64,000 nt of DNA. It comes from Euglena gracilis. Lineage: Eukaryota. The first letter of the stretch is position 1, and each line of letters opens with the position of its first letter. The notes below the pieces were generated by a model. The model made no database searches. It was not told the origin of the DNA and saw only the letters and a program-made list of their open reading frames with translations. A program made the position numbers and the translations under genes. Positions 3,708 to 58,927 of this stretch are shown in pieces. The stretch covers positions 16,634,140 through 16,698,139 of the forward strand of contig CP154954.1 of NCBI GenBank assembly GCA_039621445.1. The letters are read 5' to 3'.

Positions 3708-6631
3708 ATGGAGTCCTTGCAGGCCAGCAGCACCCACTCCCGCCGCCGTGGCTACGAGGGCTACAGCGAGGAGGCCGCCTTGGCCGCGGAGGCCAGGAAG
3801 GTGCTGGGCCAGCTGGTGAAGGCCCACTTCGCCACCAGCTACGAGGAGTTTGTGGCGGCGGTGGTGCAGCGCGGCCACCCGCTGCAGACCCTGGTGGTGC
3901 AGGTGGCCCACACCCGGGTGCCGCTGCGGACGGAGGGGGGCGCGGCACTGCTGGAGGAGCTGGCCCGGGAGCCGCGGCGGCCGCGGATTGAGCTGCTGCT
4001 CAAGGACGCCTGGGCGGTGTACCGGGCGCTGCGGCAGCACGCCTGCCCGCGGTCGGCGCAGCGGGTGGTGGCGGAGGAGCACGAGGCGCTGCTGGCCAGG
4101 CACCGGGCGGCCAGCCGGCTGCTGCGGCCCAGTGGGATCCTGCCGGAGGAGCCGATGTGGAACCGGCAGTGGCGGCGGCAGCGGGCCTGTAAGCGGCTGG
4201 AGGACCTGTGGCAGCAGTCGGAGGGGCGGAGCTGCGTCCTGTGGTTCGACAACTTCTGGAAGAGGGCCATGACGTCGAACCCCCGGATGGTGATCCGCAC
4301 CCACGACTGCTGCGTGATGGCCATGATGCGGACGGCGGTGGACGCCATGCCGGAGTACCTGGGGTACCCGTCGCTGGAGCAGCTGCTGGGCCGCATCCAC
4401 CGGGTGTCCGCACGGCTGGTGCGGAGCGACCTGCCGGCGTTCCTGGAGCTGGTCTCGGAGATCAGCGCACGCCCGCTGGAGGCGCACGAGCTGCGCGTAC
4501 CGCTGGGCGTGCGCCGAACATCAGAATGACTGAATTTTTTTTTGGAACAGCCTGTGCAGGTCAATGGGATGAGGGGACAGAACAACTGCTTATGTTGGTG
4601 TTGATGTGTTGGTGGGAAATGGGTGCCTGTCAGCTGAAGAGAACTAAATTACACCGACATGCGCGCAAACACGCCAACATTACTCTGCATTACATGTTTT
4701 GAATTAGTCTTCGGTGATACAGCAGTGTTTCGTGCAAAGTTCTCTTTTGTACTGTTGGTTCAATTTGATTTGCGCATTTGCGCGCAGGTGCAATTTTAAA
4801 TCAGCCAAGGTACCGGACCTTACCCTGTATCTGATTAACGTTTGTAAACTGATTTGATGCGCGCATTTGCGCAAATGCGCGCATCGAATCAGTTTACCCT
4901 TTGTTTAGTATCGGTTGTGTGACTACGAAGTTGGTTTCACCCAGAAGGCGGTGACTCTGATGCCGTTGAGAGAACGCTCGGTGCCCGGTGTGGCGCCCCT
5001 TCATGCTGACGGACGACCGGATCTCCTCCCAGGTGGGGATGCTGAAGGTCATCCGCTTCCTGAAGGGTGATGTGCTGTCCCGCTCGAGGGCCCCGCTGCC
5101 CCTGCTGGTGGACATCAGCCTCTGGTACCGCCAGCTGAAGGTGGTGTACGGGCGAGAGTGCCAGAGGTGGGACGCGAGCGAGGCGCTGCGGCAGCTGCCC
5201 CCGCTGTACGGCGTGTGGCACGTGTACAAGCAGGTGCTGTACGTGCTGTACCGCCGCCTACTGCCGCTGTTCCTGTTCCTGCAGCGGGGCACGATGGCGC
5301 CGGGCGAGCAGTGGTCCACCAAGCGGGCGATGGAGATGTGGGTCGGCGCCATGCTGATGAAGCCAACGGACCGCCGCGCCCGCCTCCGACGGCTGATCCG
5401 GACCCTGCGACGGTGTCGGGACACCGTGCTGCCGGAGGTGGAGATGCAGCGGGCGTGGCAGTCGGGGAGCGGGGAAATGGAGTGCATCCGGCGGGTGGAG
5501 GACTGCCGCCGGAAGGAGGCCCAGGCGGTGGAGGCCCTGGAAGAGCTGGAGCTGGACCTGGTGGTGGCGCAGGCGCTGGAGGACCTGCTGGTGGTGTGGG
5601 CGCCGGCCTGCTTCGCGCTGGGGTGGCAGATGCGGGAGTCCCACTGGGAGGAGCGGCGGCCGCAGACCGGTGGACAGGCGCGGAAGGTGCTGTGCAACGC
5701 CCTGACGATGCTGCTCCACCTGGAGGCGCCGACACCCGGACACTGGCCGCGCGGCCACTCGGACTACGTGCGTAGGCTGGCGTGCACGCTGCTGATGTGG
5801 GACCGGTGGCACGAGCAGCTGCCCGCCTGCTGCTTCTCCGAGGAGGTCAACGAGGCGACCCTCAGCAGGCTGGGCGGCTCCATGCAGCAGCACCCGGAGG
5901 CGGTGGAGGTGGAGGACGTGATGGACCTGTACCTCCTGGTGAGGCAGGGGCACCACGGTGCCCGGGAGCTGCGAGCGGGCGGGGTGGACCGGCGGTGGAT
6001 GGCGGACTGCCTGCGCAACCTGGACTACCTGCTGGACGGCAGTGAGCTGCGCCCACCGCTGGACGCCCCCGACCGCCTGGTCCACCAGATGGTGACGTTC
6101 ACGTCGGTGAAGGGGCTGCGCACGGAGAGACGGCAGCCCGAGGACCTCGACGCGGACGAGGGGGAGGAGTCCGAGGACCAGTCGGTGGTCCTGCGGTGGC
6201 CGGACGGCTGGGTGGGTCCGCCATCCCTGCTGGCGCTCGACGCTGGACCGAAGGGCGAGACGGCGCTGAAGGACGTCCTGCAGTACGCGCTGCTGACGCT
6301 CCTGAAGGACCAGGTACCCTCCGCCGACGCTGCGACGGAGCTGGACCAGCTGTGCTACGACGCGCAGGCTGGCAGCAGTCGCCGGTCGCAGGCGGGGTTG
6401 GACCTGTGCCAGGTCCACTGGGACAGCGTGCTGGGTCGCCGCCGTCCACGCCAGGAGAGGGCTCCTGGGGAGGCAGCAGCCAGACTCGCGGTTGCGCAGT
6501 CAATTTGGGGGGCTATTCACTATCACCGTTGTCCTGCTAACATTCATATCTCAGGAACACGGAAGTGTTACTTAGCATTTGCGCATTTGCGCGCACAAAA
6601 AATAAAAAAAACATGTGCACGTGTGTGGTGA
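3708..6631 (+). CDS. Putative Academ-like DDE transposase; two exons 3708-4515 and 4968-6631, about 823 aa
   Basis: Strong GC3 codon bias. The two ORFs join in frame (..VPLGVRR|ENARCPVWRP..) across a non-conventional intron. Motifs WFDN (D at 4248), LLVD (5111), LYGVWH (~5210) and FSEEVNE (~5840) are conserved in order in the paralog at 56-59 kb. The last ~45 codons lose the coding bias and may be intronic. Confidence 0.7.
4516..4967 (+). other. Euglenid-type non-conventional intron
   Basis: 5' CATCAGAATGAC (4519) pairs with 3' GTGACTCTGATG (4951-4962). There is no GT-AG. The +4/-6 register gives a frame-preserving junction; the boundary can slide 2 nt on a GA repeat. Confidence 0.75.
4844..4897. 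repeat. 54-bp near-perfect palindrome inside the intron
   Basis: GTAAACTGATTTGATGCGCGCATTTGCGCAAATGCGCGCATCGAATCAGTTTAC has one mismatch and a perfect 30-bp core (4856-4885). Confidence 0.95.
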
Positions 6632-9502
6632 TGCTGTCAATACGGTTGTACCTTATGAAACAATTTATACTTTTTATTTGCGCAATTGCGCGCATCAAAA
6701 GTATAAACTGTTCCATATTCATCCTAAGTGACATGTGCAGTAGGCCTTGTACGTGTACTTTTGACAATTTGGCTACCCTGGGGAGTTATTTCTGGATCAT
6801 TGGGATTACTTTAAGGGCTCCCGGGACCATGTGGGAGGCTTCCCTAAAAGACAACTCCCTGGGGAGGGAGGCAGTTCATACCGGGAAACGGGGGTTCTAA
6901 TTATGTAGCCCAAAAGGCGGGGTGTCGGGGGGGGGGGTTCCCCTGGAAAGCTTCGATGTTACTCATAAAGGGACAAGAGCTCAGCGACCCTAACCCTATC
7001 TGAACCCCAAGATTGACACACTGGAAAGCCAAACCCCCAAACATGTTCAAGAAAGTGTTCGTCTCTCTGTTATAAGGGGGGCAGTTCTCCAAGGATAACC
7101 ACCTTGATAGCTCAGACAATAGAACCTGGTCGGTTGCAATGTAATACCCAGTGAAAACCTGGTGGGAATCCCTTGAAGAGCACAAAAAGCCCAAGAGGCC
7201 AAAAAATGATGCCAAGAAAAAAATGGGGGGAAATATTTATTTGTGAACAGCTGCAAACCAAGTGACCAGAAAGAGATCAAATGCCCGGAGAATAATGAGG
7301 AACAGCGACAAGACACTTGGGACCTTGGGACTGGGTCAAGGCAGCGCTGATGGAACTGGGATGAGGTCGACTTAGACCCGCGGCACTTTCTTCAAATATT
7401 TTTTTAGTGTGACCGGAGCATTTTAATGTTGTCGAAAAAAATGCAATTCTCGAAGTCTCCTAATTTTTTTCAAAAAAGCGCATTTGAATTTCATTCTAGG
7501 TACCAAAAAACTTAAATGCAACATCGACAAACTCGCCTAAATCGCATTTGCCAACCCTCCAAATGTCGAACGGCAAGCCTTTCCAAAAAGGGTCAGCCAC
7601 AAAACAGGGCAGGCAGTTGGGGCTGTGCCTGCAGGACAATTTAACTGGCTGCTCGGCAAGCAGCAAGCAGCAAGCAGGAACAAATGGCACGCCGTCACTG
7701 ACTGTTCACCAACAACAAAGACCGCAGTCAAAGAAGGAGGTCACTGAATGGTGGAACCATGACTGCCCAGCAACGATGGAAGGAGTCGTAAGCTTTCACA
7801 ACGGGCTAGATTTGCTTCCAACACTGCGAAACCATAATGGACGGGGTTTAGAGTCCCAACCACAAACATGTATTGAAAAATAAACTACCAAAACAGAAAT
7901 TGTTTATTGCATTGTACAGTGGAATGTTCCTGAAACTTTAAACATGAAAACTTACTCCCCCCTCCCTGGGCGCTTGGGTCCGCTCCTTCTTACGTGCAAA
8001 CTTGGCCCCCGTAAAGTTGGTCTTCAGCTTTAACTTGCAATTTGGCCCCCCATTAATGCTTTGGTCCTCTTTTGCACATGGCTCACTGAAATCCTTAACA
8101 TGCAAACTTGGTTCCTGAGGTTGGCCCCCCGGCCTTGCCTTCAGTCATGGCCCAGGCCAAGCGCCTGGGGGGGGGGGGACACTCTTAGTTAGTTACGCTC
8201 TTGAGAATTCACCGACACCTCACAAAAGTCAGTATTAATATAATCCACTTCTTTCAGACACCTGGCGACCCACATAGTGAAAATGTGCGGCAACCAATAG
8301 ACGAGCCTGGTCCAAGCATTCCAGAGTTGCAAGCACGGATCAGGGATATATGAGAAGCCCGGAGAAGGGTGGGACCGACCAATGAAAATTTGAACTCTGA
8401 ATTATCTTCACAAAAAAACTGTCACAGCTTTTCTCTCGAGAAACTGTCATATTATCTTCAGAGGGGGGAAAACCTCCAAATTCCCCGTCACAAAAAAAAT
8501 CGAATTTGTTTCATCAAAATTACACAACCTCTTTTTTAATCCATGTTCTTATAGCACTCATTCCATTAATTTTCATCCCGGATGGATCAAGAAAAATTCA
8601 GAAACTATAAAAAACCAAAATGCAGACAAATCAAAACTTTCGCACACAAAAAAAAATACGTTGGGACAATATAATTTGGAGAAAATAAAAAAAAGGGAAA
8701 CACATTGGGAAACACATTGGGAAACATAAAAGACATTTATAGACAAAATTTCCAACATCTCCCACATTACCTTGCCCCATAAACAAATGACCGATAACTT
8801 TTCAAAACTTGCAAATAAATGTATAGAAGAAATTATATTTCATTCTGGCTCCTTTTTCTCCCTTTTGCCGTTTAAAAACGTTGAAAATAAAAGCTTCCTG
8901 AATTATTAGAGATGCATTTGATTTCGAGGGAAATATTTCATTTTTTTTTCACATCTGGGAGAAAAACTTAATAAATTGCGATTGAGGTACATAATTTTAG
9001 ACAACTTAACTTAACATTTGATTCCAAAAGTGGTTTGTGTGGCAAAAAGCACAATTTTGCAATTATATTGTTTTGTGCAAATTAACTATTTTCATTATCA
9101 ATTCTCTTCTCTGATTTTAGAAGCATATTTAGGCCTTTAAATGTAAAAAATACATGCTGAAAAAAAAGGAAATAATTTTTTTTTGAAAAACATCCTCCAT
9201 ATTGAATTATTGGCAGGAAAAAAAATTCTCTGACAACTTAAAAAAATACAATTTTGACCAAAAAAAAGCAAATTTGATGGACAAAATGTATATTGGGTTT
9301 CATGTTAAGCAAAAAAACTATTCTTGGATATTTCGGCGATTCTTCAATAATTTGCACATTTTATCCATTACATATAATGTTCATTTTTTTGTCCTTTCCA
9401 ACTGGGAGATATTTTTGAGGAAAAAAAGCCAAAATATTGATATCTGGAATTCACAAGAATACAGAGGGCTTCTTTTCATTAAAATATCAAAGAAATGTTG
9501 AA

Positions 9503-9510
9503 ATATATAT

Positions 9511-9589
<79 letters not shown>

Positions 9590-9780
9590 CATACATACAT
9601 ACATACATACATACATACATACATACATACATACATACATACATACATACATACATACATACATACATACATACATACATACATACATACATACATACAT
9701 ACATACATACATACATACATACATACATACATACATACATACAAACAAACATACATACAGACACACACACACACACACAC

Positions 9781-9871
<91 letters not shown>

Positions 9872-9903
9872 TACATACATACATACATACATACATACAT
9901 ACA

Positions 9904-9932
<29 letters not shown>
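9503..9932. repeat. Compound microsatellite (TA)n-(CATATA)n-(CATA)n-(CA)n-(CAGA)n-(CATA)n
   Basis: Directly visible tandem units. Confidence 0.98.
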
Positions 9933-9934
<2 letters not shown>

Positions 9935-9963
9935 GCATACATATATGTACATACGTATATATT

Positions 9964-10014
9964 GCAGGTGGGAAGTTTAATACCCCCCCGGGGGGTATTG
10001 AACTTCCCACCTGC
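9964..10014. mobile_element. 51-bp hairpin, possible minimal MITE in TA-rich DNA
   Basis: GCAGGTGGGAAGTTTAATACCCCCC-C-GGGGGGTATTGAACTTCCCACCTGC has 25-bp arms with one mismatch and is flanked by TATA. Confidence 0.6.
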
Positions 10015-13000
10015 CATATACATACACACACACACATATATATATACATATATGCATACATATATATATATACAAAACTTAATATATGTATATTTCTTAC
10101 AGAATTGGATCTTTGTTGTACTAAAACTCGGTTGCCTGACTTTTTTGCAATTCTTTATTTTGTTATTTTATTCTTTCGTTTGAATTCACATTTATTGTCT
10201 TTTATTATTTCTTTTAAAAAAATTGCAAAAGTGAAACCCCCCCTTCGCTTGACACAGCACACGCACAACTAGGAACAAGCCGTGGACAAGGGGGTTTGGG
10301 GACGGTACCGTCTGTCAACAGAACGGTGCCATTAGGGGATAGCAGTAGCAAAATGACCCCTTGTATGTGATTTTGGTGCTGTTTACCAATTATTGAGCAA
10401 ATCATCAAATTTCTTGAGACAATTAGAAGAAAAGGCATTGAATGTCATGATCTGAGACCGTTTTCAACAGAGCCCCCACCCCACCCCCCTGGGGTATGGG
10501 GTTTGGGGTGGCGTTGCAGTCAGTTTTTTCAGTGAAATTGGGGAAACAGGATCGAGGAGGAAATTCTTCCTAAATTTGCCTTGTGTGGGTCTGCTGGCAA
10601 CAGCTGTCCCCAAAGGATCAGACTTTCTATGAACAACCACGGGGGGTAGGGGGCCTTGTGCAACGAGGTGCCTGCCCGTGGCAGGCACGCAGTTCTGTTT
10701 TGGATTCCGAGTTTAGTCGACAGAGCCAATATTTGACCTTGAAATGGCGTTTTCGGGGCAGCGGTGCCTTCAGCGCCGGGGGGGGGGGTACAATAGCAAT
10801 ACCCACCCCAAACCCTGAAGTGCCCCTCCTGCCAGCTCGAATCCTGCAAAGGACACCACTGCTCACAAAAAAAAACCTGTTCACAAAAAAACAACCTTGT
10901 TGCAGTCGCATAAAATAATGTGTCATGACTTCTCCTGGCGAGCGATACCACAGGCCGGCAGGCAGAGCAAAACAGAGGCCACCAGGACGCTCACCGTCAC
11001 CAGAATGCACAGTGTGCACATGAAGCCCCCTTTCGCTGGTGCAATACAGGGGTTCAGTGACAGGCAAAACTGAACCTGCCTGCTGGTGTGGTCCAAACCA
11101 GGGTATTGACGCAGGGGCAAAACACCCAACAGTGGTTGTTTTGGGAGTGCGTCGTGTCAGACCAACAACACAGCGTTGCGGGATTGGCTGCCCACGTGGT
11201 CCGTACATTCCAATGATGACAGCCAAAGTCGCAACGTTATGCCTGTTGATTATTATGATGATTATTTTATTGACCAGATTTATACATATATGTATATTTC
11301 TGCATTCTGTTACCTCACCGACTACCCCCCCCCCCCAGCGGGTGGGGCACCTGTGGTGGAGGACCCTTTTGGGGGAGCCATTTTGTGCTGCCAAAAAATA
11401 AAGGTGCATCGCGTCAAAAAAAGCAGGGGTGGCTTCCTTCAAGGTCGCCACTAGTCCAGTCCCTCAGAGAGTGCGTCTGGCTACCCACCCGCCTGCCCAA
11501 CTACCAAAAAAAATCGACTCTCCTGTCGATTTCTAGCAAGGGGGTGCTTCCTTGTTGCGGCCTTCTGGCAGTGCTCTGTGAGAGGGAAAATGCATGCAAG
11601 GTTACAAGGGGCGTGATTGAGGGGCCCTTCTGACCCCTCCCCCGGGATTGGATCAAAAAGTATCCCCAACAAAAAATGTAATCTGCTGTCAAAGTTCACA
11701 TGCACACCTGATGCTGGGAGGGGGGAGGTAAAAAAAAAAGTTGTAACCCAGAAAGGGAACACCAAATTGTAACCAAATTGTAACCCACCCACAGGGTAGG
11801 GGTGATTGGGAATTAGGGTACAAGCCAGAAAGAGGAATTTGGATAAGAGGGGATTTGCTGAAATCCACCTCCGAAAAATTGGGGCAACCTGGCTGGCGTG
11901 GCAAATCCCCCCCAGCCAGCCCGGCAACCTTGAACCCCATTGGTATCAAACAGGTGTACAAAGAACCACCAAAAAATCCACGGTGGACTGGGGAAACTGG
12001 AACACCGGCATAAGAAATCGAGAAAACACTCTCAACCTGCAGTAACCTGCAGTTTGGTGGCTCGCCGGCCCAACCACTGTCCAATTTCAGGCGTTGGTGC
12101 TGCCATGCGAGTGTTGGTCCATAAATTGTGCTGTCATCAGTGCTCTGGGGTACCTTCTCAGCCAAAACCCACACAGCAACTTACGGTCAGCCGACAGATC
12201 GCCGCAGCAAGCTGTGATAAGGGGGAGGGGGCGTGGTTTGGAATACCGCCAGTCGGCATCAGCCACCCCAAAGTATGACCTTCCCGGAACCCACCCCTAC
12301 CCACGGCAGGCTGGGCTGCGGGGCTGAAAACAGTTGGTTTGGGCCCTTGCCCAGGTTGGTTGCAGGAGGGGGGCGGAGGTAAGTCCATCCCAACCACTTT
12401 GAAAGGAAAATTCCTTTGGTGCCTTTTGCGCGAAAACTGAAAAGACGACGACGGCGGCTGATGCTGGGTGGGTGTCGAGGGTTTGATATAAAGGCAAATG
12501 GGGAGGGTCGGACCCCCCCTCCAGTCCAGCAAGAGGGGGTGGTTGGGGGGACACCCCCCTCCTGTACAGTGGCACAGTCCAGGTGGCCGAAATTCTGCCC
12601 GGTGCGAAGCGCTGTGCCGATGCCCGGATGGTGGTGGCAGACCACCTTGGTTCTGGGCGCGCATGCTCTGCAGGTGGGCTAGTCGAGTCACGGCCCCTTG
12701 GGCACCCACCTGGAGAGCACCTCTTCAGTTACATGGCCCTCGGGTGTGCCCCCACACCCGAGGTACGGCCCGCGTCCGAACTTCCGTTGCCTCGGATTGG
12801 GGGCTTGTGGTGCAACCCCATCTCCTTGGCATAAAGGTGGTCACCCCTCTGGGATACTCTGGTCCGCGGCCAGCACCGACGGGGTCCTGGCTACCCCTCA
12901 GCCCGCCTCTTTCACCCAGAGATGGGCCAGACTTCCTGGAGCGACCCGCATAGAGTCGCCGTGGGGAGCCCTAGCCCGCGTCTCACCAGGAGGGTATAAG

Positions 13001-13224
13001 GGGCTTCACCCACGTGACTCTCTCCCCGGTGCCGAATTGCACTTGGGGCTGCGCGGGAGGACCTTTCGCTCGAGTCCTCGCAGGCCGAGAGCACCACCTC
13101 GGTTGCTGCGTGGGGGACCTCGTTCATATGTTTAAACCACCTGAGCTGGCGGGAGCCCATATTGTATCCTCGCCGTGGGCGGTTGCATGGTTGCATGGGC
13201 GGTTGCAGTTGCGCGCGCTCTCTA

Positions 13225-14455
13225 TCTCTCTTCTGAAGCGGTGTTGCTGGGAGAACTCCTTGGAGGGAACTCCTTGCCGACCCGAGTGTGCGTCCTTGTG
13301 GGGAAAATGTGTTGTAAGTTGGTGTGGGTGCGTGTGTTGTCAGTCTGTGTTGCGGTTTCGCCCCAGGCTGGCAGTTGGGGCATTGTCAGGGGTGACGACT
13401 GTGCCAACCCTTGTCCCCGACCGCTCTTGTCTGTGTGGCATTAATTTTTGAAAATTTATTTTTGATGCGCGCAATTGCGCCCACAAAATGCATTCTGCGT
13501 GTTCAGGGAGGGAGGGTGTGACCCCCCCATCCTCAAAAACGTTCGTAGTCTCAAACTTACGAAGCCACAAACATTCAGTACCTTCCCATCTACTTTTAGA
13601 ACACAAAGAATTCCCAAAAGAAATGTGGGGTATGTACAGGTGTACAAACGCCTGCACTAATGGGCCACTATTTTCACAGGGGACTGAAGGAACTCTTTGT
13701 CGGACGCAGTACACGTACAAGGCCTACCGCACATGTCACTTAGGATGAATATGGAACAGTTTATACTTTTGATGCGCGCAATTGCGCAAATAAAAAGTAT
13801 AAATTGTTTCATAAGGTACAACCGTATTGACAGCATCACCACACACGTGCACATGTTTTTTTTTTACTTTTGATGCGCAAATGCGCAAATGCTAAGTAAC
13901 ACTTCCGTGTTCCTGAGATATGAATGTTAGCAGGACAACGGTGATAGTGAATAGCCCCCCAAATTGACTGAGCAACCGCGAGTCTGGCTGCTGCCTCCCC
14001 AGGAGCCCTCTCCTGGCGTGGACGGCAGCGACCCAGCACGCTGTCCCAGTGGACCTGGCAGAGATCCAACTCCGCCTGCGACCGGCGACTGCTGCCAGCC
14101 TGCGCGTCGTAGCACAGCTGGTCCAGCTCCGTCGCAGCGTCGGCGGAGGGTACCTGGTGCTTCAGTAGAGTCCGCATCGCGTACTGTAGGACATCCTTCA
14201 GCGCCGTCTCGCCCTTCGGTCCAGCGTCGGGCGCCAGCAGGGATGGCGGACCCACCCAGCCGTTTGGCCACCGCAGGACCACCGACTGGTCCTCGGACTC
14301 CTCCCCCTCGTCCGCGTCGAGGTCCTCGGGCTGCCGTCTCTCCGTGCGCAGCGCAGGACGGAAAAATGGCTCCACTACCTGTGGGGCACCCTCCGGGAAA
14401 GCACCCTTTGGGGAGGGCTAGTCAGGCCCTTTCGGTGTGGAGAGTGGCAAAAAAT
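13225..14455 (-). repeat. Dispersed repeat homologous to 34110-34511 (probable LINE 5' region), interrupted by a transposase fragment
   Basis: 13225-13440 aligns with 34110-34322, and 14350-14455 aligns with ~34405-34511. Confidence 0.85.
13441..14352 (-). pseudogene. Inverted 5'-truncated copy of the 3' part of element 1 and its transposase
   Basis: 13708-14352 is the reverse complement of 6115-6759 with scattered substitutions (ORF 13836-14375 repeats LRTERRQPEDLDADEG...). 13441-13707 continues with another GCGCAATTGCGC motif at ~13467. Confidence 0.92.
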
Positions 14456-20310: not shown

Positions 20311-22617
20311 AATTTGATTGGGGAGGCTTTGTTTTTATTTTTTTTTGTAAGGTCTTTTTATCTATTTTGTTTTATTATTTATTATTTATTATTATTATTT
20401 TATTTATTATTATTTATTATTATTTATTATTATTATTTATTATTTATTTTTTCTTATTAATTAATTTTTCTTTTCTTTCTCTTTTGTCGGGAATCCTCCG
20501 CTTTTGCTTGGGTTTGATAATCTCCTTTTTTTTGTTTTTGTCTTACCTTATTTTCTCCCTTTCTTTCTCCTTTCCTCCATCTATTTTTAACCAAACCATT
20601 TTCAGTGTTCGCAAAACCAGGGTCTGTGTTAGAATTCAGGCTCAGGCAACCATACCCTGACTTCTAGCTAAGGAATTTACACATTCACCACACCCCCAAT
20701 TTCTTGGACCTTCGATCTCAGCTTTTTCGACATCAACTAAGCAAGGTGCTTCCAGCTTACCTGTTTGCATTCAGGAGCTGACCCGATTCCTCCACTCCTC
20801 CTTTTGGGACGCCCCTGCCCCAGGCCGCCTCTGTGGCGGTAGCACCCCCGCCCAGTACCCAAGCCCCTATCGGCAGCCTCAACAACATATATGCAGCTAG
20901 AGCCACCTCGTCCTCCTCAGGCACCTGCCATTGCAGGAACAGCTGCACCTGCTGCCGCTGACCTCACGACTGCCTCTGATAGGTAGAGACTGGCAATCAT
21001 ATCACCACCCCCAACCTCCAGATTCTCCCAGCACGAAACATCTCCTAATACGAGACAATTTATACCATTTTCTTTGTATCCTATGGGGTGATTCTGGTGT
21101 TCTATGCTCCGTTTTCACTTATTGAGGGAGGGCTCCACCCCCTGCAATCCCGGCATTAAACCCGAATTGCCCTTGCCTGTTTTCAGTATGCAAGAGATGT
21201 AGTATTACGCTTTATCCAGTCTCCACCATTTCTGATATTGTGGCAGTCCGGATGTATCAATTGGTTGGCCTGGATCTTGTGATGGTGAATGAAACATTTC
21301 ATCATCATCTTGGTTTTGTGGGGGATGTGACGCCAATGGCTACTTGTCGGGGCTACTGGTACACCACCATACCAGACGCCCTTGGGTTTATTTAGCTGGT
21401 GCAACCCATACCATCAATTAGTCATCGGCAGATGCCCCAGGGGACTGGTGCTGTCCCCCCCCCCTTTTTTTCCTTGCTTCCCCCCCATTGCCGTTCTTTG
21501 CTTCTTGGCTTGATTTCTTTTCTAAAGAGGCCAACTGATGAGGCTTAGCCCATCCCCCTGACAATTTGCAAGACACCACCGAAGTGACCCGGCACAGATG
21601 GCGCCAAGAAAAAAGTGTTTTGAGTTTTCTTTTTCTTTGTTTAATCTCTTCACACTGGCCAGACTCCATGAGACCCCCATTAATTTTTCAAAACTGGAAA
21701 TTACACCCTTCTACCCCGAGGCCAGTAACAAATTGTATGGCGCGGACGCAGTCTTGGAGTTCCCCCTCCCCTCCGGAGCCGTTTTCCGAGTCACCTCCCG
21801 CCACCCAGACGGTACACCCATGTATTGCATCAACACCCGCCGCCCTGACGTTGCCCCCCCCCCCCAGCCAAGCGACCCCGCCTTCAACCCCCAGTGGTGC
21901 CCACCATCTCTCAGTCCCCACAGCCCCACTGCACCCAGTTCGGCACCCTCCCAGCGTTTCCATGGCAAGAACTCCTTAGTCGGCAGCAGGCTGAGGGACC
22001 TGCACCTCGTCGCGGCCGCTCCAGATCTCACCGTCCACTCCGTCACAAACGTCCAAATTCCGCAGGCCGACGCCCACCCTCCCCTCCCCGCGCACGGAAT
22101 CCCTCCTCACGAAGCAGTTCTGCGCTCTCGCCGCCAAGGAAGCCCTCCACGTCTCCCACGGTCGGCCCAACGTCAGCAACAGCCACCCCGTCCCCTGCTC
22201 TGCAGAGCGGTCCATGAGGGACGGGGAAGTTTGCACCTTTATTTAATTCTATTTTATTTTAGTTTCTTAAGGACTGCCCCTCCTTCGGGCCAAAATGCCG
22301 GCCAAGGGCCGGATTGGGATTGGAACGAAGTCGAAATTCAACAGGTCAAAAAATGCATCTTTAGATACATTGGGTGGATTGTCAACGGTTCAGGTTCAGA
22401 TGCTAGCAGTCAATTTTTCTCCCAGTTCTTGCCTTTCCGAACTTCCTTTATTTTTTCACTTTTATTATTTTTTTTTATTGTTGTTGTTGTTGTTGTCGTT
22501 ATTTTTAGTTTGCTTTTTTTTGTTTTCCTAAGGACCGCCCTGCCGCTTTCCAGTGGAGCTCCTGCAAGGGTGTGCCGGGAGCCCGCAAGGGCCCCCTATG
22601 CAGGGTGGTCCGCAAGG

Positions 22618-31425: not shown

Positions 31426-31503
<78 letters not shown>

Positions 31504-34047: not shown

Positions 34048-34117
<70 letters not shown>

Positions 34118-34698
34118 GAATCGGTGTTGCTGGGGGAACTCCTTGGGGGGAACTCCTTGCCGACCCGAGAGTGTGTGCTTGTGGGGGAAGTGTGTTGTCA
34201 GTCGGTGTGGGTGCGTGTGTTGTCAGTCTGTGTTGCGGTTTCGCCCCAGGCTGGCAGGTGGGGCATCGTCAGGGGTGACGACCCTGCCAACCCTCGTCCC
34301 CGACCGCTCTTGTCTGTGTGGCGCAGACCGTTACAAACGAGCTCTGCGTCACCCTCCCGGGGGTGGGGGAGGGGGGGGTGAAAAAAACCGGCCCCAAGAA
34401 CAAGGCAGCGCGGGACGGAAAAATGGTCCACTACCTACGGGGCACCCTCCGGGACAGCACCCTTTTGGGAGGGCGAGACAAGGCCCTTTCGGTGTGGAAA
34501 GAGGCAAAAATTGCCGAAAAATACGGACGGCACCCGAAGGCTTGGGGCGCGAGTACCCAAATTAAGCCGCCGGTCCTGGGGTCGCAGCACCAACCCCTGG
34601 GGGAGGGGGTGGCCTGAGCCGCCGGTTGCTCAGCAGAACTGCCGCGTGTTTAGCCCACAAAATGGGGCGCTGGGGGCGAGGCATGGGGGTGCGAAACA

Positions 34699-39730: not shown

Positions 39731-40499
39731 AGTGTCTTAAAAGTGCAGTATGTGGTCGGGTACATGCTCATTTTTTATTGACTCCCCCTCAAATGCCCGA
39801 CTACCTGCCGGCCAGGGCCGAGCCGGGCTGACTAGAGCACCAAAGTGGGAAGTGGCCGTAGGTGCTGGAGGGGGAAAATGTCTGACCTGGACATTTGCTG
39901 TTGGGAAATATACAGCCAGGAAAAATATTGGACAAATGCTTAAATGTAGGTGGAAAAAAATTCTGGACGAAAACGTCTCTTGAACCCATTTTTCTAAATT
40001 AAGCAAAGAACACATTTTTTTTGGATGATCAATGCACTTTCTAACAGGTGATTTGGAACAAAAATGCATTCCAAGAATTGGTGCAAAGCACCGAAGAAAT
40101 CCCTTGGGCGTCCACTGGAGTTAATTGTATTTTTCTTAAATTTGCCAAGAAAAATCCTTGATGGATCTTTAAAATGGCAGGGAAAATCAAAATTTCGTCC
40201 AAAATGTTTCCCACAACAATTTCTCCTGTCAAGTCCCCCCCCCCCAGGTGGAGGCCTTTGTTTTAAGCACTCCCTTTTCTCTACAAATTTAACTTTTCCT
40301 GCGTTTCCTCTATGAATATCAAATTGAATAATGGACCCCAAAGGTGAAGGAGAATAACGACTTTCGGCGCGACGTGGAGGATTCCAGTCAGTCCTCTTTG
40401 TCCAAGCACCACTCCCTGGTTCTGCCCACATTATGTGTTTATTGGAATAAGCACCCTACACCATGGTCTTCCACAAAGAAGGCGTCACATTTTGGCTTT

Positions 40500-40844
<345 letters not shown>

Positions 40845-44669: not shown

Positions 44670-44945
44670 GCCACAAGCCATCGCATTTCCAGCATGGAAC
44701 GACCCAGGAAAATGGAGGCCGGGGAGGGGGGGGAAGGCCTCTCAACGTTTCTGCCGTGTCAAACTTTGCATCAATGCGGGAAGATGCAAGTTGCATCTGT
44801 AAGTATCCTGAGATCCTGCCAGAGTGAATATCCAACTGATATTTTGGGCCACATATCAGTGCGGGCTGTGGTGCCTTGTGCTGGCTATTCCCAGAGGGTT
44901 TTGCAGAAGTGGGCGGTGGCACAGCGGCACCACGCCACCTGACAA

Positions 44946-44946
<1 letters not shown>

Positions 44947-45040
<94 letters not shown>
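44947..45040. repeat. (CA)n microsatellite
   Basis: Visible tandem repeat. Confidence 0.97.
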
Positions 45041-45044
<4 letters not shown>

Positions 45045-47148
45045 CAAACGCACGCGCGCACACACACAGGCATGTGCAGGCAAGAACGGTATAGATGGGG
45101 CTTGCCCAGTAGGGCTGCAACGATCCAGCCGCTGCCCCAACCCTGGGATTAAACACTTATTTTCTTTATTTGCGGTACATTTATTTATGTTGGAAGCTCA
45201 GCTCATGAAAACGACAGACCCTAACTAAGCCTTCGCTTGAGAACCTCCGGGCCTCGACCTCCGAGGGTGCGGACTAAAATTCACTTGCTTGAAAGACAGC
45301 TGCTTCAACACAGGGCTGAGGGCAGGAGCAACCCGGGGCTGAACTGGGCACCAAAAAAAGCGAAAATTGCAAAAAATGTATAAAAAAGTGTAGAAAAATG
45401 TGGATAATGGCTCAAAACTCGCATCTATGTTGAAAAATGACCATATTTGTGAAATTTTGCTGGTTCCCTTCCAGCAAAAAGGTCCAAAAGCAGGATTTTT
45501 GTAAATTTGGGAAGATGCTGATTCTGGGAATATGGAATTTTTTGAGTGAAAAAAAGGCAAAAAAATGACGAAAACTTTGGTATCAGGTATAATCTGGTCC
45601 GGGATGCTAAATTTTTCTTGGTCAAATTATTTCTCAACAGAAATTGGAGAAAAGCCTTTTTTTTAAAAAAAAATTGCCAAATTTTGTCAAAAATTTGTGA
45701 ATTTTGGCAAATTTTGGCAAATTTGCAACAAAATAACAAAAAATCACTTCCCTTGTAAACGCTCAATGAATGTCCGGAACTCATTTTGCCTTCCATGCGG
45801 AAAAAATGCGGAAAGGGAAAAAAAACTGCAGAAAAAATTGCGGAAATCGCGGAAAAATTGCGGATATCAGTTTCCCACCCTGAGTGCTACTACCCCCCCC
45901 CCCTTGCCCACCGGGGGGGAGGGGTGTCAGTGGGCTGGTTTGGAGTGCGGCCACGGTAAGCGCCAGCCATCCCCATTGACTGCCGCCCAGATGGGGGACT
46001 GGCACAGATTCATTGAACCTCTGCGTGACCCAATGGGGTAGGGGTCAGAGGGTATTTTTAGGACCCGGGGGGGGGGTCCGGACCCCCACCCACCCCCTGG
46101 GAGGAGGGGTCTTGGGGGAACCCTTTTGGGGTCAATTTTGGGTCCAAAAGAATTTTCGGCGCTTTGTGCCGAAAATGGAGTGAAAACCCTCCTCTCGCGG
46201 GGTACCCACTTGTCCCAACCCCAACCCCCAGGGGAGGGTGAGGGGCTCGGCCTGGACCTGCTCACCCCACTGGGTCACCAAACTATGAAAAAAAGTCTCT
46301 GTTGGTGGGTTTTGAGTCGGTGTTTGACATAAAAACATGCAGGGGGGGGATCTGACCGGGAACAATTGGTATGGGGGTGGGGAACCTGGAGGGGGTTTGC
46401 CGGTTGGTTCAAGAAAAAGGTGCTGGCTTGGAAGAGAAAAAAGGGGCTGGCTGGACCTTCTGCCGAGGGGCATCTGGGGGGACAGGTCCGAAGCTGATCT
46501 GGAGCCCGAAAGTGGCAAAAAAAAGTCCAAACCCACCTAGGTTGGGATTTTTCCGCCGGACAGCCCCAGAAAAAAAAATTCCGTTTTTAAAACCATTTTG
46601 ACCCTTCTTTTGGGGCTTTGTGCTGACGACTTTTGCGGGCCAGCCCAGCTTTGCCCGGTTGGCCCCAACGTTCCTTCGGCAGACCCCAGCAGGCGGGGTC
46701 CACAACCCAGCTGGCGAAGAGGGGGGAAGATGCCGGCTGGCTTGACCGCCCGGGGGTGGGTCTTTCCGGCTTAAAAAAACCACCGGCTTTATATTTAACA
46801 AACCTGCGGGTGGGGGCGGGGCTTGTGGAAGGGTGGGCCTGCTCACGGCTCCCTGTAGGGTATCAGTTTTGAGTCTCGGCCAGGTCCGACCCAGGTAACT
46901 TTATCCTAAAATGGCAAACCTCAGCCAGGCATCGTTTTGAGATGCCTTTAAAACGTTTTAAAAAAAAAACCTCAAAAGTTCAAAAAAAAACTTTGGGTTA
47001 AAATGCCTTTAATACCTTCAAAGAAAAACTTTGCAAATCATTGCGGCAAAATTTTTGTCGACTGAGCGAAAATGCAGTTGCCAAATCTCCACAACAGCAA
47101 GCCAATTGCCACTGAGGGGAAAAAAAGTATTTCTGGCATCGTTTGGAA

Positions 47149-50602: not shown

Positions 50603-50850
50603 CGGTCAGTGTGCGCATTTGCACACACCGGCGATGTGCGCATTTGTGCACACCTTATTTGTGTTAGTGGTCAATGTACGCATGTGCGCACATCGACCAC
50701 TTTGCCTTTCTTGTGTGAATGGTTGGTGTGCACAAATGCGCACATCGACCATTCACAAAAATACAAGTGGTCGATGTGCGCAAATACGCACACCGACCAC
50801 TCACACAATTGCACAGGTGGCCGGTGTACACGAATGTGCAAATCGACCCT
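50603..50850. repeat. Array of ~32-bp imperfect palindromes, consensus TGGTCGATGTGCGCAAATGCGCACATCGACCA
   Basis: Units at ~50603, 50630, 50668, 50720, 50768 and 50818, plus an outlier at ~51079. Confidence 0.85.
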
Positions 50851-53290: not shown

Positions 53291-53965
53291 TAGTAAACCT
53301 ATCCTATAACCCCCCCACGTATACCCCCCCCCTGGGCCCGACCACCAAAGCGTGACTATAATCTCTAATAATAATAATAATTAATATACATATCCCCCCC
53401 CCTAGAGGGAAAAGTGGCTAAGACTTAGGCGGCGTAAATTGCCCATGACAAAATTGACTGAAGTGGCACCCGGAACAGTAGAAAAATGCTCCAAAAAACA
53501 GCCAAAATTTTCGAGTTGTGCATCAGGACAGAAATTTTTCAGCGTTATTGCGTATGTAACAGACGAAGCGGAAAACCGCTTCGATAATTTCTGAAATTTA
53601 TTTTTAGTAGATTCACAGGTAAATACGAATAGTAAACCTATCCTATAACCCCCCCACGTATACCCCCCCCTGGGCCCGACCACCAAAGCGTGACTATAAT
53701 CTCTAATAATAATAATAATTAATATACATATCCCCCCCCTAGAGGGAAAAGTGGCTAAAACTTAGGCGGCGTAAATTGCCCATGAAAAAATTGACTGAAG
53801 TGGCACCCGGAACAGTAGAAAAATGCTCCAAAAAACAGCCAAAATTTTCGAGTTGTGCATCAGGACAGAAATTTTTCAGCGTTATTGCGTATGTAACAGA
53901 CGAAGCGGAAAACCGCTTCGATAATTTCTGAAATTTATTTTTAGTAGATTCACAGGTAAATACGA
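53291..53965. repeat. Tandem duplication of ~338 bp at the left end of element 2
   Basis: 53291-53628 and 53630-53965 are nearly identical, and each contains one GAAGCGGAAAACCGCTTC. Confidence 0.95.
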
Positions 53966-56194
53966 CGCAGCAAAAAGGTTGCAGAAAACCTACCACAATC
54001 GACACACAACGAATGATGTCATCTGTCAAGCAGACACACAGAGACAGAAAAATAATATATACATAGCAAATACCTGCGAGCAACTAACGAATCAGTATAA
54101 CAAGGAAATTTAAGTAAAATGCCGAATGAAGCGGAATACCTCTTCATCGACACCCAGAGTCGTGATATTACATTAAGTGCAACTGAATCAGAGGTAACAG
54201 GAATACATGTACAATTATGCTGTACAGGATAAAAAGGAGGAGAGACCACGTTGCACCTTTGTGATCAACTCGACCTGACACCGACGTTGGCCACCGTCGG
54301 TGTCGGTTGTTCCTGTGGGCTGCCGGGGCCGCAAGCGGCGGAAGCAGGCACCTGGCAGCCCCGTGGCTCCCCGCCTTGCACTGCCAGAGACAGACTGGTT
54401 TTAGGCCTAAACAGAATGAAAAACTAACATTTGAGGTTTGTGGTGCACTTGGCAGTTTGGTGGTTGTGTAGTGCGCGGAACAAATGCGTAGGTCCATGAG
54501 AAGCAGATAATGAATACAAAGCAAGCGGTTTTCCGCTTCCTTTGCACGTAATGGACACAATTTCACAAAAAGGGGAGAGGCTGGACCGGGTCCAATTCAC
54601 TTCCCCGTACCCCTGAACGGTGCCCAGCCGTCAGGGGTTCAGTTACGGCTTTTGCTGGACCAGGCAGGCGAGCGTACAGTCCAGGCTCCCCGTTCATCGC
54701 AGTACATACGCGTTACGTAGTGTACGATGAATCTTGCGCATTGCACTTTGTGGTTCAGTCAAACGTTAAACGGTTAACAACATCGCGCATCGCATTGCAA
54801 TGCGGACGAACGCACTCAGAATACAACGACAGAATGAACATGAAGCGGTTTTCCGCTTCTTTTTAATAAGATGAGCAATATGCTTAATGTCCATCGCGAG
54901 GTGAGGTACATAACTGTTTACCGGTTGCATGTACCATGAACAGGACACCAATCGTCATCTTAGCATCCAAATTGAAGAACTAAGTTACAGTGGTGTACCG
55001 AAGTCAAGATTGGTCCACTGCAATTCGTTGTGCACGTATCTCCGCCTGTGCTACGACACTTGCGCTGAGTTCATCGAGTCCATGAGAAGTCCTCTGCAAA
55101 CATGACCTTGGCGGAGTTTTTATTATCAAAGTCAGGATGGAAGACAGTTTTATATGTCCAACAGATGAAAATGAAGCGGAAAACCGCTTCACCTACGCCT
55201 GAAATCGCGATGCCGTCTGTTCATACCGAGTGATGTGACCACAAAGTACTACATTGTCCAGACCCCATGCATTCAGGTAGTTTAACTGAATGTGCTCTTC
55301 GGGCTGCCGCTGGCAATGGCCAGCAAAGGCCGTATGTGGCGGGGACTGCCCACCCCTCCCACGTACTGTCTGTGGTTCCCTACCAGTGACAGCCTCCTTT
55401 TTTGCTTTTACTGGAGGCAGCGGGAATCCACTTCATACGTGTGGGTAGCGACTGTGATCACCCAGGCAGTCGGGTTCATCAGTGCAGATTGGACTCAATT
55501 TGCTGGACGATGTTTACTTTCTGGTGCAGTGCTAAGTCACATTGGTATGGACAGCTGAAGAAAGACGTGAGGTCAGTGTATATACCGAGATCAAGATACT
55601 ACATACGCCTGTGATGTTGTGATTAGTTGGTTAGTCCGCAGGGCAGGGTAGTGACTGTGATCACGGCAGGCAGTCAAGCAAATGTGGGTAGTGACTGTGA
55701 TCACCCAGGCGGTTGTACCAAAAAAAACATGCATTAATTTAAAATGAGACAGAATAGGAAGCGTTTTTCCGCTTCCTGAAAAAATGGAAGAAAAAATACG
55801 TAAATCCAACCCTACGTTTCTGAATCGCGAGGTTTCTAACCGACGTAAAATGGCAGTTGTACCACCAACCACATCAATTCACCATAAGTTCCTAGGTACT
55901 CGTGTTTTGGGAAGGATTTTACCTGACATCGCGCTCTGGATGCGCCCATTTTGAGAGACCAACGTCCTGTTGCACCCCCCGTTTCAAAATAAGAATACCC
56001 TTACCAAACAGCACCCCAAAAACAGCACTACCGTCCAAATGAAGCGGAAAACCGCTTCATAAATGAAACTATAAGCTATTTAACAAACAGTTCTGAGTTT
56101 AATGTGTTATAAACACCAGATTGCCAAGAGGAAGCGGTTATCCGCTTCCTTTTCTGTCAGTATATCCGTATCTGCCCATTGAAACAGAGAACAC

Positions 56195-58927
56195 ATGCCC
56201 GCTGTTGCATCGCCTGTCCAATTGGTCCTGAACATTCGGGGCCTTCGCGCCTATTTGCAACATGGCAGGCCTCGTTCGGGATGGGACCTATTTTACGATG
56301 CTTTCGTAGCTCGTCAAGTAGGTGCCCAAGCAATTGTTTCACTGTGCTGCATGGTGCGGCTGAATCGACGTTCACGTCGCACAGTGGAAGCGGTGCGGGA
56401 GGCCTACATGCGGTCTTCGTCTCACCGTCCACGTTGGCTGGGACAGCTCGCCACTGGGGCGTATGCTGTGTGGCGTACGCTGCATCGACATCGACATCGA
56501 CATCGGCATCGACAGGCACAACCCCTTGCAGACCCCAGTACAGTGGCCGAGAACAATCCCAGCATGCGGGCACTGCAGCAGCTTCCGAGGGCAATGCGGA
56601 GAACTCTACGGCACACTGGCATGGTGGGTTGTACGGAGGTGCCGGTTGCAGCCCGGGCAGCAGTGGCGGAGCGGGACATCCTGGCCTCCCTGCGGAACCA
56701 CCAGGTTGTCCTCTGGCTGGACAACTTCTGCTGGCTATGCTGGGGAACGGACCCGGCCACCCCAAACCTGAGCCAGAACCTCACTGCTTTTGGAACAGTG
56801 CAGGGTATAAATCATACTGATGTGTGCATGATTCAATGAATCACTGGTTGGATCCTGAAGCAGTTAAGAATTAAACGACTTTCGGTGAATGGTAATGAAG
56901 CGGAAAACCGCTTCATTAATACTCAATATGTTTGCATGGTTGTTTGTGGTTCAACTGTAACAAGTAAATGATTCAGAAGCATGGTAACACCCGTACTTTG
57001 CACTGATGACGCTTTCTGCAGCTGGAGAACCTGTTGCACCGACAGGGGACGAGGACACGTTCCTTGACCTTCCCGGTGTCTCCAGGACACCCAGAGCTGA
57101 GCGACCTGATTGGCAACTTGGAGGTGGTGGCGTCCTCCTGTTGTACCGCATCGTTGCTGCTGCACCAAGCCGTGGGTCGCATACAACGGATGCAGCTGAC
57201 GGAGACGAGTATCAGGGTGCCGCTGGATGTGGCGCGGACCGACATGCGGTCACTGCAGTGGCGTCCGCTGTCGCTGACCGAGCAGGTGGTGTTAGCCAAC
57301 CTGGACCTGCTGCTGGTGCTGCAGACGGCGAAGTCACTGCAGCACCTCACTCGTCGCCAAACGCCTCTCCTGGTGGATGAGAACATCCACTACCGGTGTA
57401 TGCGGCTGCTGTACTCTGCATCGGCATCGCGGTACTACGTGTCCCGCTATCTGGCCGAGGTCCCCCTGTTGTACGGCATCTGGCACGCGTACAAACACAC
57501 GGTGATCGTCGTGTACCGGGCGTTCTTCCCGGTGCTGGCCCACCTGGAGGTGTCCCCTGGTGACCACCACTTGACGTGCAGCCTGCGGAGCCACCGGAAA
57601 GTGCTGTACATGGAGAAGCTGTTTGCCAGCCTTCTGTTGTCCCGCGAGTCGGTCATGTCCCACTCTGAGTCGCGCATAGCACCAGGGAAGCGGTTTTCCG
57701 CTTGCTTGACGTTCACTGATGCAATTTCATGATGTATGTGACATGCTATCTGCGATTCAGTAGTCAACTGGCAACCAGAATGGGAGATTGGAGTCGCTCT
57801 GGGAGTACACGAGCTGAACAACAGCAGCAACTCCGGTCCTACCTGTACCAGCTGCTGCAAGGGCTGTGGAACATCCTGGTCTTCTATGCCCCGGCCTTGC
57901 TGCACCTGGGACATGAGGTCCGACAGTGTACCTGGAGTGGTAGACCCGAGGACGAGGTGAAGGGCACCACCGTGCTGCAGAAGTGCCTCCTGCTGATGTT
58001 GCACCTGGAGCGCCTGATGAGTCCCGGAAGGCCGCCGCCCTTGGAGTACCAGCGGACCATCTCCCTGGCCCTGCTGGGGTGGCAGGACTGGATGTCCCGG
58101 CTGCTGGGCTGCGTGTTCGTGGAGGAGGCTGGTGAGGCCATGCTGTCGAGGTTGTCCTCTGCCTGCAAGCGGAATCCCCACGTGACCAGCTTCGAGGGTA
58201 CGCTGCAGCTGTTCCTGAACCTCGGCGAGCCCTCCGGCAAGGCTCACCACAGCCGTGGCAGCCTCCGGAAGCAGCTCGTGCAGGAGATGGCACGTCGTGT
58301 TCGTGGCCTGCTTGGCAGCCCTGGTGACCGTCCATTTCCGAAGCGGGTGGACAGCACAACCGTACGGTGGCTGGTGGACCCAGAGACCTACCCCACCTGG
58401 ATGGCACCGGAACCTCCACCAACGCGGATGACCACTGAGCAGCTGCTGCCCGTCCTGCGACACTCCGTGCAGACGCTGGTCCGAGGACAGCGCCTCGCTG
58501 CAGACGTGGAGGAGTGGTTCAGGACCAACGTGGGCACTGTTGATCCAGATATTCTGCAAGAAAGAGAAGAGGCGATGTACCCCTTCCTCACGCGCAGAAG
58601 AAGCAGGGCTCCACAGCGGAACATCCTCTTCAGCGTCCAGATGAAGCGGAAAACCGCTTGCACGACACGGATGAAGCGGATACCTGCTTCGATGTCAACT
58701 CAGCTGAGATGGAGGTGGCAGAGGCCTCGATCGTGGTGGGTGACCAGGAGGAAGGCAGCAGTCTGTACGAGCCACCGGAGTCCCTCTACGAGCCGCCCGG
58801 TGACTTATCGGACGGCTACGTGTCCGTGGGGGCCTCCGACGGATTGGACTGGCTGGGCTCACTGCAAGGCAGTGATATATCCGATGCTTCATCGGACGTA
58901 TCCGTAGCAGTGGTGTGTAAATGCTGA
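56195..58927 (+). CDS. Putative Academ-like DDE transposase, paralog of 3708-6631; exons 56195-56792, 57011-57661 and 57766-58927, about 800 aa, with a probable 1-nt frameshift near 58595
   Basis: Two non-conventional introns give in-frame junctions (LTAF-G-FLQL; VMS-Q-LATR). Motifs: WLDN (D at 56720), IRVPLDV..WRP, LLVD (57376), LYGIWH (~57475) and FVEEAGEAMLSRL (~58122). The acidic tail (ORF 58658-58927) lies in another frame. Confidence 0.7.
56793..57010 (+). other. Non-conventional intron
   Basis: CAGTGCAGGGTA (56796) pairs with TACTTTGCACTG (ending 57005). CAG is at +4 and CTG at -8; the frame is preserved. Confidence 0.85.
57662..57765 (+). other. Non-conventional intron
   Basis: CTGAGTCGCGCATAGCA (57665) pairs with TGCTATCTGCGATTCAG (ending 57760). 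The +4/-6 register restores the frame. Confidence 0.8.

Follow-up and report, generated by a model that had tools for sequence, protein, structure and literature searches.

Transposases of the hAT, P-element and Transib/RAG1 types cut their element out of the DNA and rejoin it elsewhere with two metal ions. Academ elements make target duplications of 3-4 bp or 9-10 bp, and their catalytic signature is D-N ... D ... GxxH ... E, as given in a previous reading of the present locus that was made from the letters alone (hereafter the sequence-only reading). Academ has been reported in Pucciniomycotina and Mortierella (PMC5751038) and in bivalves, where the curated elements have a mean length of 5565 bp (PMC10294476); until recently it had no Pfam model (PMC5751038), and its described lineages are defined by an XPG nuclease (AcademX) or by a helicase (AcademH) (PMC10045372). 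A stretch of 64,000 nucleotides from Euglena gracilis (assembly GCA_039621445.1, contig CP154954.1, positions 16,634,140 to 16,698,139 of the forward strand), called here the window, contains two genes, A and B, that the sequence-only reading had assigned to a euglenid branch of Academ. We read A and B as intact DDE-type cut-and-paste transposases that represent two old lineages of one large unannotated transposon family, with a probability of roughly 0.78, and take this family to have been recently active. The build predicted for these proteins matches that of the hAT, P-element and Transib/RAG1-type enzymes.

Two diverged paralogues in the window

The models of both genes were built by script from the window sequence, guided by public relatives (P0001-P0010, 40-66% identical to A, the longest of 892 residues) that align over their full length with the two open frames of gene A and more loosely with the three frames of gene B. 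The features of the two genes, all on the plus strand, are as follows.

3708-4529 and 4970-6631, plus strand: open frames of gene A
3708-4524, plus strand: gene A exon 1, with the predicted N-terminal helical domain and then strands 1-2 of the putative catalytic core; motif WFD181NF (D codon 4248-4250); ends with RVPLG (G267, codon 4506-4508), where the family has D
4525-4976, plus strand: intron of gene A, some 452 nt long, borders placed to +/- 5 nt
4977-6631, plus strand: gene A exon 2, with PLLVD318 (5111-5113), GVWH354 (5219-5221), SE561E562VNE565A (5840-5854), a shortened coiled coil and the C-terminal domain; stop 6629-6631
56183-56839, 57010-57732 and 57720-58907, plus strand: open frames of gene B
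56195-56795, plus strand: gene B exon 1, with WLD176NF (56720-56722); 3' border approximate
57014-57718, plus strand: gene B exon 2, with RVPLD272 (57226-57228), PLLVD322 (57376-57378) and GIWH358 (57484-57486); borders approximate
57838-58658, plus strand: gene B exon 3, with YAPALLHLG, VE531E532AGE535A (58122-58136) and the C-terminal domain; borders approximate
58682-58927, plus strand: gene B exon 4, in a different frame; 5' border approximate, stop 58925-58927

Spliced gene A (3708-4524 + 4977-6631) has one intron and encodes 823 amino acids, and its start agrees with the N-termini of the homologues. Spliced gene B (56195-~56795 + ~57014-~57718 + ~57838-~58658 + ~58682-58927) has about three introns and encodes 790 amino acids, the last exon supplying an acidic tail with YEPPESLYEPP that is also present in the relative P0015. 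Neither reading frame contains an internal stop, and no intron position is common to the two genes. None of the RNA datasets listed carries gene A. Exon-only pieces in run X15, whose RNA type is guessed, were considered as gene A transcripts and set aside, since they differ from the window sequence by 2-11 letters and therefore come from paralogues.

The relationship between the two genes is visible at the protein level. The second frame of A matches both the second frame of B (expectation value, E, 2e-15, 33% identity) and its third frame (E 1e-14, 31%), while the N-terminal frames match weakly (E 0.012). The spliced proteins are 28.1% identical across 730 aligned columns, with a local alignment score of 446 against a mean of 43.7 (standard deviation 5.8, maximum 71) in 200 shuffles, so that the paralogy proposed from the letters alone is real. 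The little DNA similarity noted at the same time also holds: a blastn comparison of the window with itself at E <= 1e-10 gives no match between A and B. In a tree of 53 full-length rows, A falls in a nine-row clade (support 100), where P0002 is closest to it (53% identity), and B is sister to P0015 (support 99, 48% identity) within a seven-row clade (support 98). Because several deep forks part these well-supported clades, the two genes are rightly described as deeply diverged.

The collinear motifs listed in the sequence-only reading survive for the most part. Of the ten pieces tested, eight are found letter for letter in both proteins, with their order preserved; the third string was tested as two pieces because the intron of gene A splits it. 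The others need small edits. L[LM]HLE fits A but not B, which reads MLHLE, so that the pattern should be [LM]LHLE. In the two longest strings one spacer lacks a residue, and as given they fit neither protein, although all their residues are present.

A large family with invariant acidic residues

A profile of the alignment A1 was searched against 1.84 billion cluster representatives (clusters at 50% identity) and retrieved 1239 family representatives at E <= 0.001, 803 at E <= 1e-10 and 280 at E <= 1e-30, with many fragments among the 150 listed. Residue conservation was measured in an alignment of 130 rows and is given in the numbering of P0003. The motifs WxDN, RVPLD, PLLVD, GxWH and SEExxEA are invariant family-wide, and both A and B retain WxDN, PLLVD, GxWH and the EE..E helix. 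Asp165 occurs in 107 of the 107 rows with a residue at that position and Asp303 in 119 of 119; N166 (98%), G336 (94%), H339 (98%), E584 (94%) and E587 (95%) follow closely. More broadly, W163, N166, R248, P250, D252, R255, W338, H339, E380, E584 and E587 are conserved at 94-100% (D252 at 98%, E380 at 96%), the acidic positions E583, E584 and E587 at 90-95%, and W263, Y341, K342, P503, G509, R513, W517, Y557 and W568 are likewise invariant or nearly so. The scaffold D-N / D / GxxH / E proposed by the sequence-only reading thus corresponds to family invariants and is not a product of chance. The position of D252, Asp in 98% of the family, is Gly in gene A (RVPLG) and in P0001.

No Pfam family was found in five window frames, in six full-length relatives (E <= 1) or in 51 members searched singly (E <= 10), which makes 62 sequences in the hmmscan total, the six homologues being among the 51. 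Matches to Frey, FA_desaturase and HTH_91 (2/51) at the loose threshold are scattered and were discarded as chance.

Predicted fold and the closest solved structures

The structure of P0003 (799 residues, 53% identical to A) was predicted with AlphaFold2 on the 130-row alignment, with a mean predicted local distance difference test (pLDDT) of 92.3 and a predicted template modelling score (pTM) of 0.88. The model contains the following elements, in residues of P0003.

N-terminal domain: helical
159-172: long strand, carrying D165
180-192: strand, followed by an inserted helix
255-269: strands
276-293: helix
300-302: strand, with D303 adjoining
304-315: helix
333-335: strand
338-351: helix, beginning with W338-H339
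391-517: coiled-coil hairpin, with a helical bundle
584-599: helix with E584 and E587, followed by the C-terminal domain

The core order strand1-strand2-strand3-helix-strand4-helix-strand5 is seen in two confident models, that of P0003 and that of P0016, a natural fragment consisting of the core only (pLDDT 89.3), which was folded because coiled-coil proteins swamped the open searches with the whole model. In the P0003 model the conserved acids lie on strand 1 (D165), just after strand 4 (D303) and on a later helix (E584/E587). In these predicted models the order of the elements is that of an RNase H-like core with an insertion ahead of the last catalytic helix.

From this architecture a mechanism may be proposed. 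The N-terminal helical domain would probably bind DNA. The RNase H-like core would provide the first catalytic Asp on strand 1 (WxDN) and the second just after strand 4 (PLLVD), with GxWH opening the helix that follows strand 5, presumably at the place of the C/DxxH motif of hAT. A long helical insertion, predicted as a coiled-coil hairpin plus a helical bundle with conserved Trp and Arg, would then precede the SEExxEA helix. This helix leads back to the core and would contribute the third acidic residue, the putative catalytic Glu.

Comparison of the whole P0003 model with solved structures gave the Drosophila P-element transposase as the best Foldseek match (E 0.041, probability 0.91), followed by Hermes. 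Structural alignment with Hermes chain 4d1q_A gave Z 9.4 and a root-mean-square deviation (rmsd) of 4.9 over 265 aligned residues, model residues 111-622 covering 111-609 of the chain, and with 6dwz_A Z 9.2 over 312 residues; these alignments begin at model residue 71, 111 or 133 and end at 622. All the rows ranked above Hermes in the structure search are coiled coils placed on residues 391-492. With the core-only fragment P0016, the open search lists nothing but RNase H-like domains in rows 1-12: reverse transcriptase-associated domains at Z 5.6-6.5 (foamy-virus reverse transcriptase, Z 6.5, 98 aligned), lentiviral integrases at Z 5.6-5.8 and rmsd 2.4-2.7 (maedi-visna virus integrase, Z 5.8, rmsd 2.4, 81 aligned) and RNase H1 (Z 5.2, 107 aligned). 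Foldseek again placed the P-element transposase first for this core (E 0.052, probability 0.75), and the comparison guided by it added Hermes (Z 5.8, 153 aligned), ISCth4, Transib, RAG1 and Tn5. The RNase H fold suggested as a check by the sequence-only reading is seen in the predicted order of the core and among its structural neighbours, at modest scores, and the term transposase-like fits the predicted RNase H-like fold, the conserved D / D / E-helix and the Hermes-like build.

Among solved structures, only those of Hermes (4d1q, 6dww, 6dwz) match the core, its helical insertion and the last catalytic helix together. D303 and E584 of the model lie as far from the ends of the aligned ranges, to within a few residues, as D248 and E572 do in Hermes. 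The family nevertheless differs from hAT and Hermes in several respects: identity is 10-12%, no hAT Pfam domain such as the hAT dimerisation domain occurs in the 62 sequences, the insertion is a coiled-coil hairpin of 125 residues, and an extra helix with the conserved RVPLD loop stands between strands 2 and 3. The P-element transposase (6pe2, 6p5a) is the best Foldseek match of both the whole model and the core and also has an RNase H core interrupted by an inserted domain, and its gene has introns; E is only 0.04-0.05, however, and Pfam detects no THAP or GTP-binding domain in the family described here.

The fold matches bear on the idea that A and B encode an RNase H-like protein with another role, for example in RNA processing or repair, and owe their abundance to hitch-hiking in another repeat. 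The best matches of the core are indeed reverse transcriptase-associated RNase H or connection domains and integrases, all with Z below 8, and gene A adjoins a still more abundant repeat at 1885-2826. Nevertheless, core, insertion and E-helix together are matched by transposases only (Hermes, 265-312 aligned), the two Asp and the acidic helix are invariant across the family, and a truncated copy near 13.7 kb consists of A sequence alone, without the 1885-2826 repeat. A role outside transposition thus appears highly improbable.

Copy number, decayed copies and element ends

Contigs and reads of public runs from the same organism were placed on positions 1-9400 of the window. The summed word depth of the contigs of run X1 is distributed as follows.

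1-628, 1257-1884, 7223-7850 and 8479-9400 (flank bins, most): 134-297
1885-2826: 106,351-145,602
2827-3768: 9,085-11,396
3769-6908 (ten bins, gene A): 21,566-76,620
6909-7222: 2,354
7223-7850: about 184

Gene A thus lies in a high-copy repeat: its summed depth exceeds that of the flanks by a factor of about 120-420, although the tool warns against taking such depth as a copy number; this result concerns gene A only. The 9.4-kb stretch received 6779 contig pieces, 2216 of them at >=99% identity and 4563 at 95-99%. Single-copy contigs resume at 6928, and the repeat block that encloses gene A measures about 5 kb. For a hundredfold step in depth that follows the gene there is hardly an explanation other than many young copies. 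The repeat at 1885-2826 is the most abundant of the 1-9400 stretch and has TTAGGG-like units near 1912-1925; one single-copy X1 contig joins 1865 to 2053, and the 187 bp at 1866-2052 resemble an insertion/deletion polymorphism.

Decayed relatives of gene A occur as well, the first of them within the window.

13708-14352, minus strand: A-family copy, truncated and inverted, corresponding to 6115-6759 with 96.4% DNA identity

This copy shares the 3' boundary of gene A (~6762 / 13708), where the similarity stops abruptly, and breaks within the coding region at its 5' side; its differences from A are spread evenly over the three codon positions (12/13/16). In addition, 229 residues of the public protein P0042 match A at 92% identity before the alignment is lost, probably through a frameshift.

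A second explanation is that A and B belong to a host multigene family of transposase descent, domesticated or expanded and now immobile, acting as a DNA-binding protein or nuclease, for example on the surrounding palindromes. Both genes have introns and intact frames, element ends were not found, each gene stands amid its own palindrome copies, which might be binding sites, and in gene A a Gly stands in place of the Asp found in 98% of the family. These points are countered by the depth of gene A, about two orders of magnitude above its flanks, with thousands of pieces at 95-99% identity, by the truncated and probably frameshifted copies, by the even distribution over codon positions of the differences between A and its truncated copy, and by the 1239 clusters at 50% identity with their many fragments. 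Introns are no bar to mobility, since P elements and Ac carry them. A host family of this kind is accordingly unlikely, and mobile transposases remain the preferred interpretation of A and B.

For the ends of the elements, the sequence-only reading had pointed to TAG at 2601, 53291 and 53403 as candidate left ends. The letters are there, yet a mere trinucleotide carries no weight, and position 53291 was discarded because it is the start of a 338-bp tandem duplication. The duplicated unit occupies 53291-53965 and its two copies are 98.8% identical. The shared 3' end of gene A was likewise rejected as a terminal inverted repeat, because its reverse complement occurs nowhere upstream and is found only at the two known copies. 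Contig joints between palindromes (3170 -> 6672 and others) were not accepted as deletion derivatives, their sides being merely 20-23 letters long, and are read as other genomic copies of the palindromes; the joint 2250 -> 7995, of the same short-sided kind, was not counted as an empty site.

Several observations weigh against the reading of A and B as intact transposases of a mobile family. All fold scores are modest: Foldseek never reaches E <= 0.001, every Z of the core is below 8, and the Hermes Z of 9.4 lies below the caution line of the tool for helix-rich models. E380 (96% conserved) is an alternative third acidic residue. Pfam transposase models match none of the 62 sequences, and a sequence-profile search of the PDB gave nothing below E 0.31. 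Judging from its sequence, gene A could be inactive if the Asp of RVPLD matters, and raw RNA reads of run X21 (5% sample) reach a depth of 0-0.5 across its exons. To these points may be added the warning attached to the summed depth and the fact that the boundary at ~6762 is the sole supported end, through one second copy. Neither terminal inverted repeats nor target duplications nor empty sites, as sought for A and B in the window with its one full copy per lineage, were found, and the inverted repeats at the loci are solely short internal palindromes.

Possible relationship to Academ and DUF6589

The membership in Academ that had been proposed for A and B finds partial support. By language-model features (ESM Atlas), the nearest family is DUF6589 for both lineages: DUF6589 clusters make up 25 of the 30 matches of P0003, of the A type (score 0.91, with 176 of the 256 features in common), and 29 of the 30 of P0015, of the B type (named clusters only; score 0.94, 200 in common), in whose clusters 97-100% of the members carry DUF6589. 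The Atlas gives neither alignment nor E-value, so these matches are a lead only, and its recognition scores, 1593 and 1799, are low beside the 2300 reached by most known families. A direct profile check gave the opposite result, since hmmscan finds PF20231 (DUF6589) in none of the 62 sequences, the 51 members having been searched even at E <= 10. A word-indexed search with a 51-row profile returned 11 close relatives only and no protein annotated with DUF6589. Neither A and B nor the 51 relatives nor the frames nearby contain a Pfam domain of an XPG nuclease or helicase.

DUF6589 is probably the transposase domain of Academ, a view based on matching taxon ranges. The DUF6589 clusters matched by P0003 come from Basidiomycota, Mollusca and Mucoromycota. 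In the literature searched, DUF6589 appears as an unexplained domain only, and Academ has no report from Euglena.

Besides the language-model features, the likeness to Academ includes the large protein of about 800 residues, the occurrence of the D-N ... D ... GxxH ... E signature given for Academ in the sequence-only reading and, if the repeat block of about 5 kb is the element, a long element. Unlike Academ, the family described here is not matched by PF20231 in HMMER and shows neither an XPG nuclease nor a helicase as partner, its genes have introns, and its host is a protist lineage without an Academ report in the literature searched. A narrower version of the transposase interpretation, nested inside it, is that A and B belong to the Academ superfamily proper, as a euglenid branch with a DUF6589 transposase. 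It draws on the DUF6589 share of the Atlas matches in both lineages, on the agreement of the taxa of these clusters with the reported range of Academ (PMC5751038 and PMC10294476) and on the comparison of the ~5-kb block of gene A with the 5565-bp mean of bivalve Academ (PMC10294476). Against it stand the absence of PF20231 from all 62 sequences, the absence of nuclease and helicase domains from A, B, their relatives and the neighbouring frames, the low recognition scores and an equivalence of DUF6589 with Academ that is no more than probable. Membership proper is therefore tenable at somewhat short of even odds. We infer instead a remote kinship, in which the family would be a transposase-only relative of the DUF6589/Academ group, a lead rather than membership.

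Palindromes and non-canonical introns

Each gene is accompanied by its own family of short palindromes.

2604-6699: A-type palindrome family with the core TTGCGCAAATGCGCGCATC, copies at 2604, 3147, 4856/4867 and 6678
4764 and 6575: related copies of the A type
13464 and 13771: A-type copies beside the truncated copy
about 50633-50746 (~50.7 kb): two weak A-type matches
53565-63902: B-type perfect palindrome of 18 nt, GAAGCGGAAAACCGCTTC, every few hundred bases

At three mismatches or fewer, TTGCGCAAATGCGCGCATC has nine matches in the window (0.01 expected), and the A-type palindrome also occurs in many other genomic contexts in contigs and RNA reads. Two members lie in the intron of gene A, at 4764-4792 and at 4844-4897, the latter a hairpin of 54 nt with arms of 27 nt that are 96% complementary. 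At the same threshold GAAGCGGAAAACCGCTTC gives 22 matches at 21 sites (0.03 expected), all of them within the 10-kb span 53565-63902 and none in the other 53 kb of the window. Its sites lie upstream of B and in or at the three introns modelled for B (56897, 57687, 58643/58673), and also in the non-coding gaps between the frames of the gene downstream of B; conservation is limited to about 18-22 nt.

For the nonconventional introns of euglenids, an origin from elements resembling MITEs has been proposed, with pairing at the intron ends (PMC11282704). The introns of A and B resemble such introns, or introners, in that GT-AG occurs at none of the eight best-scoring junctions of the gene A intron, that the intron positions of A and B differ and that each intron carries a short palindrome; they differ in that the palindromes are internal to the introns and not at their ends. 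The CAG/CTG pairing of ends published for euglenid nonconventional introns was tried for the gene A intron and abandoned, as it gave no fit by eye and one candidate junction gave a stop codon.

These observations suggest a speculative scheme in which each transposase lineage would own its palindrome, the TTGCGCAAATGCGCGCATC type for A and GAAGCGGAAAACCGCTTC for B, which the transposase would bind and scatter locally as a minimal hairpin element; hairpins landing inside genes, those of the transposases included, would leave the RNA as lineage-specific non-canonical introns. As a whole this scheme is very unlikely to be correct.

Other features of the window

The gene downstream of B has several coding frames, one of which reads GKWVILSGQHRFLAASAI, recalling what is presumably a motif of the ParB/DGQHR type. 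No Pfam family was found in it, and its exon at 59678-60271 has no relatives among longer proteins. Rfam finds nothing in the window. Its remaining features are as follows.

59500-62000, plus strand: gene downstream of B
22617-28903: degenerate internal repeats over about 6.3 kb, 72-78% self-similar at many offsets, with an extreme strand asymmetry (GC skew to -0.54, AT skew to -0.38)
9503-9961, 40493-40843 and 44942-45072: short-period satellite arrays, mutually 73-97% similar, partly in opposite orientation
13218-13439 / 34101-34322, 14348-14453 / 34405-34510 and 31434-31519 / 34049-34134: dispersed repeats of 90-93% identity, connecting the surroundings of the truncated A copy with a GC-rich block at 31-34 kb
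31-34 kb: the GC-rich block, with long low-complexity open frames rich in Pro, Gln and Glu and no Pfam family

Implications

If A and B are what they appear to be, the repeat-rich genome of this protist, with about 1.5 billion letters of contigs in one run, hosts a very large and diverse transposon family, which is invisible to standard annotation because it has no Pfam, PDB-sequence or named-protein match; with a profile made from these sequences, a large share of the repeats now classed as unknown in such genomes could be annotated. If the kinship with DUF6589 is true, the Academ/DUF6589 group would reach into a part of the eukaryote tree that is new for it, there reduced to the transposase only. 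Finally, the palindrome scheme, if true, would connect nonconventional introns, whose origin and spread are unexplained, with a named enzyme family, and palindromes specific to each paralogue, lying in introns that the paralogues do not share, offer a concrete system in which to ask whether DNA transposons seed non-canonical introns.

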